Shown here: piece by piece, positions 11,206-11,392 of the stretch | Position numbering within the stretch: the stretch's first letter is position 1 | Layout of the letters: each line of letters starts with the position of its first letter | Origin: Escherichia coli | GTDB taxonomy: Bacteria > Pseudomonadota > Gammaproteobacteria > Enterobacterales > Enterobacteriaceae | Assembly (NCBI RefSeq): GCF_050920415.1 | Contig: NZ_CP169309.1 | Direction: 5' to 3' (one strand) | DNA length: 64,000 bases | Notes under the pieces: generated by a model | Databases searched by the model: none | What the model was told of the DNA's origin: nothing | Seen by the model: only the letters and a program-made list of their open reading frames with translations | Program-made: the position numbers and the translations under genes

Positions 11206-11281
11206 TGGAGCGGGAAACGAGACTCGAACTCGCGACCCCGACCTTGGCAAGGTCGTGCTCTACCAACTGAGCTATTCCCGC
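11206..11281 (-). tRNA. glyV: tRNA-Gly (anticodon GCC)
   Basis: Reverse complement GCGGGAATAGCTCAGTTGGTAGAGCACGACCTTGCCAAGGTCGGGGTCGCGAGTTCGAGTCTCGTTTCCCGCTCCA, ends in CCA. Confidence 0.93.
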
Positions 11282-11316
11282 TTGGGTGGTCTGTGCTTTG
11301 CAGCACTTTCAAATTT

Positions 11317-11392
11317 TGGAGCGGGAAACGAGACTCGAACTCGCGACCCCGACCTTGGCAAGGTCGTGCTCTACCAACTGAGCTATTCCCGC
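11317..11392 (-). tRNA. glyX: tRNA-Gly (anticodon GCC), second tandem copy
   Basis: Identical 76-nt sequence, 35-bp spacer from first copy. Confidence 0.93.

Follow-up and report, generated by a model that had tools for sequence, protein, structure and literature searches.

The tRNA-Gly(GCC) array between queG and orn in the window (the whole 64-kb stretch of Escherichia coli DNA analysed here) comprised two genes and was probably derived, by a genuine repeat-mediated deletion of 233 bp, from a three-gene, ERIC-containing array of the same clone. The three-gene array was recovered between identical flanks in a draft assembly of that clone. The array in the window equalled it minus exactly 233 bp, corresponding to the ERIC-containing spacer and one tRNA gene, with nothing else changed.

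Both genes were identified by ARAGORN and together spanned 187 bp (Table 1). The two copies did not differ at any of their 76 nt, the encoded CCA included. The anticodon gcc was placed at position 34 by ARAGORN, and each copy scored 69.1 bits against the Rfam tRNA model (gathering score 29), consistent with the cloverleaf of a tRNA. The spacer read TTGGGTGGTCTGTGCTTTGCAGCACTTTCAAATTT on the plus strand, and its RNA contained a 5-bp hairpin (GUGCU/AGCAC; fold −7.2 kcal/mol). The initial annotation had described two identical 76-nt tRNA-Gly(GCC) genes, 35 bp apart on the minus strand between queG and orn, and ARAGORN, Rfam and the sequence agreed with that description. The tRNA-Gly genes are real gene content and no chance pattern. 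ARAGORN returned three tRNA genes for the window, the two tRNA-Gly genes and one tRNA-Phe gene; no third tRNA-Gly copy was found within the 64 kb. The fourth gene for tRNA-Gly(GCC), glyW, is sited outside the window. The tRNA-Phe(GAA) gene was located at 40554-40629 on the plus strand. In the collinear record of strain MFDS1022581 its neighbours are dicD and cadC, and the annotation shows no island beside it.

Table 1. Features of the tRNA-Gly array and its surroundings, in window coordinates.
Feature	Coordinates	Strand	Basis
datA-type intergenic region	10940..11205	.	Pattern matches and identity to the K-12 type
Downstream hairpin followed by GTTTTTG	11147..11194	-	11-58 nt past the last tRNA; RNA fold −14.3 kcal/mol
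tRNA-Gly(GCC), promoter-distal copy (glyY position)	11206..11281	-	76 nt, CCA encoded; ARAGORN; Rfam RF00005
Inter-tRNA spacer, 35 bp	11282..11316	-	Read from sequence; RNA AAATTTGAAAGTGCTGCAAAGCACAGACCACCCAA
tRNA-Gly(GCC), promoter-proximal copy	11317..11392	-	Same sequence as the 11206..11281 copy; ARAGORN; Rfam RF00005
Likely glyVXY promoter	11450..11477	-	Read from sequence; assigned as PglyV-X-Y by position (PMC10950094)

Gene order was collinear with annotated E. coli records: nnr, queG, yjeV (a 17-codon ORF), the tRNA-Gly array, orn and rsgA. The neighbours queG (plus strand, ending at approximately 10936) and orn (minus strand) were named from the annotation of these records. The array lay between orn and queG/datA and was oriented for transcription towards queG, which is the location of glyVXY. 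It carried 2 copies only in place of the three tandem genes of that operon, and appears to be a copy-number allele of it. K-12 had been credited with three copies, and the K-12-type O16:H48 genome PG20180062 did have three copies of this 76-nt sequence in a 299-bp array, separated by 35 and 36 bp. The K-12 operon glyV-glyX-glyY (tRNA-Gly3) and the window shared the 76-nt tRNA, the position between orn and queG/datA, the orientation, the upstream region and a 35-bp spacer of the same type. They differed in gene number (2 instead of 3), in the 36-bp promoter-side spacer of K-12, which was absent from the window, and at 2 positions of the 35-bp spacer.

The likely promoter comprised a −35 element TTGCAG (11477-11472), a 16-nt spacer and a −10 element TATAAT (11455-11450), with a GC-rich discriminator (GCGCCTCCC) and an A/T tract upstream. 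A consensus promoter/terminator scan returned no promoter here, because the −35 element matches the consensus at 3/6 positions only. The only hairpin reported by the scan was an unrelated one at 11016-10994, and the hairpin downstream of the last tRNA was not listed. By comparison with PMC10950094, the downstream hairpin is a probable terminator or attenuator of the operon. The intergenic region beyond it was 96.3% identical to the K-12 type over 269 bp, with no gaps. It contained DnaA-box matches at 10950-10958 (TGTGAATAA) and 11112-11120 (TGTGGATAA), a near-match (TGTGGATAT) within 11170-11190, and a match to the IHF consensus at 11043-11055. By its position, this region probably corresponds to datA, a DnaA-ATP-hydrolysis locus sited downstream of glyV-X-Y, at which IHF binding is regulated by read-through from the glyVXY promoter (PMC10950094). 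The promoter, spacer hairpin, downstream hairpin and adjacent datA were all intact in the window, and the remaining operon looks functional.

The three-gene array of the clone was found in contig AAXHKJ010000002.1 of assembly GCA_015518365.1 (L020), which was retrieved by means of the exact Nnr protein of the window. The array was read in this 1 of 24 contigs of that lineage. The contig was 100% identical to window positions 4251-11392, and the right flank also matched. Its 420-bp array comprised a tRNA gene, a 35-bp spacer, a second tRNA gene, a 157-bp spacer (a 121-bp ERIC insert plus 36 bp) and a third tRNA gene. From its first tRNA gene through the 35-bp spacer to its second tRNA gene, this array was identical to that of the window. 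In the alignment, the 233-bp difference started and stopped inside tRNA copies; exactly one repeat period was missing, with its endpoints in identical direct repeats and flanks of 100% identity. Loss of a unit by recombination, or its collapse by an assembler, had both been proposed in the initial annotation, and the identical 76-bp repeats that bound the missing material are what either would predict.

The 121-bp insert, absent from the window, was present at a median of 9 places per E. coli genome (42,067 places in total), as a dispersed repeat. It matched the ERIC2 primer at 19/22 bases and the ERIC1R primer at 16/22, and folded as a long hairpin (−23.4 kcal/mol). ERIC/IRU elements are imperfect palindromes of approximately 120-127 bp that share a consensus core and occur between genes in many copies per genome, and on these characteristics the insert was assigned to them. 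Copies at least 95% identical to the insert occurred in 1,606 records. An ERIC in the glyV-glyX spacer was estimated for roughly 25-30% of E. coli genomes (15/59 sampled), and the element is an insertion polymorphism inside the tRNA operon transcript. Carriers of the ERIC spacer among the loci inspected were MFDS1022581 (L002/L006), L004, L005, L007, L016 and L020.

The closest complete genome, MFDS1022581 (NZ_CP169399.1), was 100.0% identical to the window over 4 kb of flank on each side. Over the 64 kb, array aside, the two differed by 5 SNPs, one 4-bp indel and one IS2 insertion. Its array comprised two tRNA genes separated by 157 bp (309 bp in total), and equalled the three-gene array of the clone minus 111 bp, or one tRNA gene and the 35-bp spacer. 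MFDS1022581 keeps the ERIC spacer and is without the 35-bp spacer, and has therefore lost the other unit than the window. Array lengths in the three near-identical genomes were consequently 420, 309 and 187 bp.

A single step would convert the array of L020 into that of the window. Starting from tRNA, 35-bp spacer, tRNA, 157-bp ERIC-containing spacer and tRNA, two identical 76-bp tRNA genes would misalign and one 233-bp unit would be lost. This would occur in the cell rather than in the assembler, by unequal crossing-over between sister chromosomes or by replication slippage or single-strand annealing. The copy at 11317-11392 would then be a fusion of the ancestral middle and first genes, with a crossover point that cannot be placed, the copies being identical. 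The expected result is one tRNA-Gly(GCC) gene fewer and a promoter 233 bp nearer to datA. What was observed directly is the sequence before and after, the position of both endpoints inside repeats, and the repeated occurrence of such alleles across the species. Because MFDS1022581 and the window miss different units, losses of either unit would have taken place in this clone. Precise excision of ERIC from an array of the MFDS1022581 type was also considered. It additionally needs the spacer to change by 1 bp (TTTTC to TTTC) and was rejected, since loss of one 233-bp unit by the three-gene array accounts for every difference.

Copy number across the species was measured in 5,426 complete E. coli genomes. 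Array length was taken as the span in each record minus the query length, using queries made of the two flanks only. Classes were counted with short-flank queries, the E-value cut-off being set low enough to admit none but full-length, collinear alignments in a single piece; E-values came out as calculated (1e-141, for example, for a perfect 276-bp match). Counts of tRNA-Gly genes taken from a plain BLAST table were rejected as unreliable; they are misleading because alignment pieces can start inside any repeat, and one match listed with two copies actually has three genes. An apparent variable region beside queG, suggested by coverage of approximately 58% in most genomes, was likewise set aside as an effect of piece joining, the intergenic region being conserved.

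Two genes without ERIC were found in 80 of the 5,426 genomes and two genes with ERIC in 25, giving two copies in 105/5,426 (approximately 1.9%). Four or more genes were present in 17 and one gene in 15, so that losses (120 genomes) outnumbered gains (17). The remaining genomes, approximately 97.5% by subtraction, have mainly three copies and include an uncounted minority of other array forms. Among 59 systematically sampled genomes, arrays of 299 bp (40 genomes) and 420 bp (15 genomes) predominated; 187 bp was found in 2, and 294 bp and 309 bp in 1 each, the last being MFDS1022581, the top-ranked match. Tandem tRNA genes are well known to change in number by duplication and deletion.

Two-copy arrays were found in named, apparently unrelated strains (ATCC 25922, O157:H7 Xuzhou21, a strain named ST648 and others). 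Both of two separate records for strain 2013C-3277 had one, as did eight OkiPb017xx isolates that share a source. The two-gene genomes without ERIC (for example ST648, ATCC 25922, Xuzhou21 and GF131) resembled the window in having a tRNA gene, a 35- or 36-bp spacer and a tRNA gene, collinear over a 387-bp query. The 80 genomes of this class nevertheless belonged to other lineages, with at most 99.5% identity to the window over those 387 bp; GF131 was 96.5% identical over 8 kb. The class with two genes plus ERIC comprised MFDS1022581 and 24 other complete genomes. Two-copy arrays retain one or the other spacer, of 35 or 36 bp, to judge by their spans (385 or 386 bp). Independent events are indicated, some two-gene arrays without ERIC keeping the 36-bp rather than the 35-bp spacer. 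Real, heritable two-copy alleles in the species are supported, because such arrays were seen in unrelated strains, in the repeat 2013C-3277 records and in the OkiPb017xx isolates, with either spacer kept. A one-copy array was seen in seven genomes whose flanks were 100% identical to the K-12-type sequence, the laboratory strains MC1061 and OV2 among them. This points to a two-unit loss in K-12-type laboratory lineages, or to collapse in their assemblies. The array has been stated to comprise three or four genes throughout E. coli (PMC4539685); with 15 one-copy and 105 two-copy genomes among 5,426, that statement is too narrow.

An assembly artefact is the chief alternative, possible if somewhat doubtful. 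In it the source strain has three genes plus ERIC like L020, and the assembler, going from tRNA by way of the 35-bp spacer to tRNA and flank in the repeat graph, dropped the ERIC-containing unit. Taken alone, the sequence would fit a direct-repeat deletion and an assembler collapse equally well. Between identical flanks, the array of the window can be traced as a valid sub-path through that of L020. The repeat is perfectly identical across its 76 bp, and the dropped spacer holds a dispersed repeat that would add to the ambiguity of the graph. The different apparent loss in the sister genome MFDS1022581 would also fit an assembler error. Two different losses in two near-identical genomes would be a coincidence if deletions are rare, and could point to assembly errors in one or both. 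Against this, all three copies were resolved in the draft assembly GCA_015518365.1 of the same clone. Two-copy arrays were moreover present in 105 complete genomes, clonal groups and two records of one strain included. At repeats of this kind assemblers also, in general, break contigs more commonly than they join them wrongly, which argues against an artefact. A repeat-mediated deletion in the cell is the preferred reading of the window.

The reverse polarity, in which two copies are ancestral and normal in the lineage and the three-copy relatives gained a unit, is scarcely credible. Gains do occur, as in the 17 genomes with four or more copies. The clone-mate L020, with flanks of 100% identity, nevertheless has three copies, and 420-bp arrays were found in 17/17 of the relatives that come next in flank identity (99.0-98.5%). 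Approximately 97.5% of the species also fell outside the counted one-, two- and four-or-more-copy classes, and a gain would need to recreate an ERIC spacer identical to that of relatives at approximately 99% identity. The one of these 17 relatives that was inspected, 24A16CRGN010 (L007), carried three genes plus ERIC and a 35-bp spacer identical to that of the window. A further record found by means of the exact QueG protein (L016) carried three genes plus ERIC and had the right-flank variant GTACTGCTT in common with the window. In the three-copy arrays of L007, L016 and L020, the queG-side 35-bp spacer was the same as the window spacer. The suggestion in the initial annotation that two copies might be usual for the lineage thus failed on L020 and on the 17 next relatives. 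Since a contig with flanks of 100% identity and the near relatives carry three-gene arrays, two copies are a derived state and not the lineage norm. On the same comparison, the ancestral array of the clone appears to have had three genes, with ERIC in the promoter-side spacer.

Import of a two-copy array by homologous recombination from another two-copy E. coli lineage is most improbable: other lineages do hold such alleles, but none of the 80 two-copy genomes without ERIC matched the array and flanks of the window above 99.5%, and the spacer and both flanks are already supplied at 100% by the clone's own three-copy array.

The kind of polymorphism described here is already known; the operon is well studied, and this copy-number allele of it is rare but recurs. 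The details added to the initial annotation are that the missing unit included ERIC (233 bp, not 111 bp) and that it is the other unit that was lost in the sister genome. Only the presence of three array states within one clone is mildly unusual; it suggests either a high event rate at the array or frequent assembly error. The locus is flagged as one where assemblies need checking against reads.

Strains deleted for the whole glyVXY operon pay a cost in rich medium and gain a benefit in poor medium (PMC9981150). For loss of one copy, a small, condition-dependent effect would be expected. Unusual instability of the array in this clone, or fluctuating selection on it, with switching as an adaptive and rapidly reversible form of tuning, was considered very unlikely. 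It was entertained because three near-identical genomes differ in array state, because glyVXY read-through regulates IHF binding at datA (PMC10950094) and because tRNA-Gly gene dosage carries a cost in poor media and an advantage in rich media (PMC9981150). If true, switching of copy number would tune translation capacity, the control of replication initiation, or both. The natural alleles of 1 to 4 copies, with or without ERIC, are ready material for relating tRNA dosage and promoter-to-datA distance to growth and replication timing. Their use for such tests comes from the position of the array immediately upstream of datA, where binding of IHF depends on operon read-through.

The 8 kb around the array (7206-15392) was approximately 96.5% identical to most complete E. 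coli genomes, 98.5-99.0% identical to 17 and 100% identical to one. A divergent lineage or an import by recombination may be the origin of this segment. The exact QueG protein was also found in genomes of approximately 4.5-4.9 Mb outside the E. coli collection, with approximately 98% DNA identity in this region. CP079884.1 has the same QueG protein and an extra gene beside orn. In those genomes outside the E. coli collection (loci L010-L015, L017 and L019; 4993-5733) a gene for a 246-aa periplasmic solute-binding protein (Pfam SBP_bac_3) separated orn from the tRNA-Gly array; neither the window nor the E. coli records had anything at that place. One of these loci, L017, had a single-base variant in its promoter-distal tRNA-Gly gene (4408-4485; 98.7% identity to the window tRNA), and because of this variant its three tRNA-Gly copies are no longer identical.

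Two of the differences between the window and MFDS1022581 were located. The 1,331-bp IS2 of MFDS1022581 was inserted between dcuR and dcuB (window approximately 53984-53988), where the window has no insertion sequence. The 4-bp indel, AGTG at window 27188-27191, is a short tandem duplication (AGTGAGTG) in the window, and by the coordinates of MFDS1022581 it lies between ecnA and efp.
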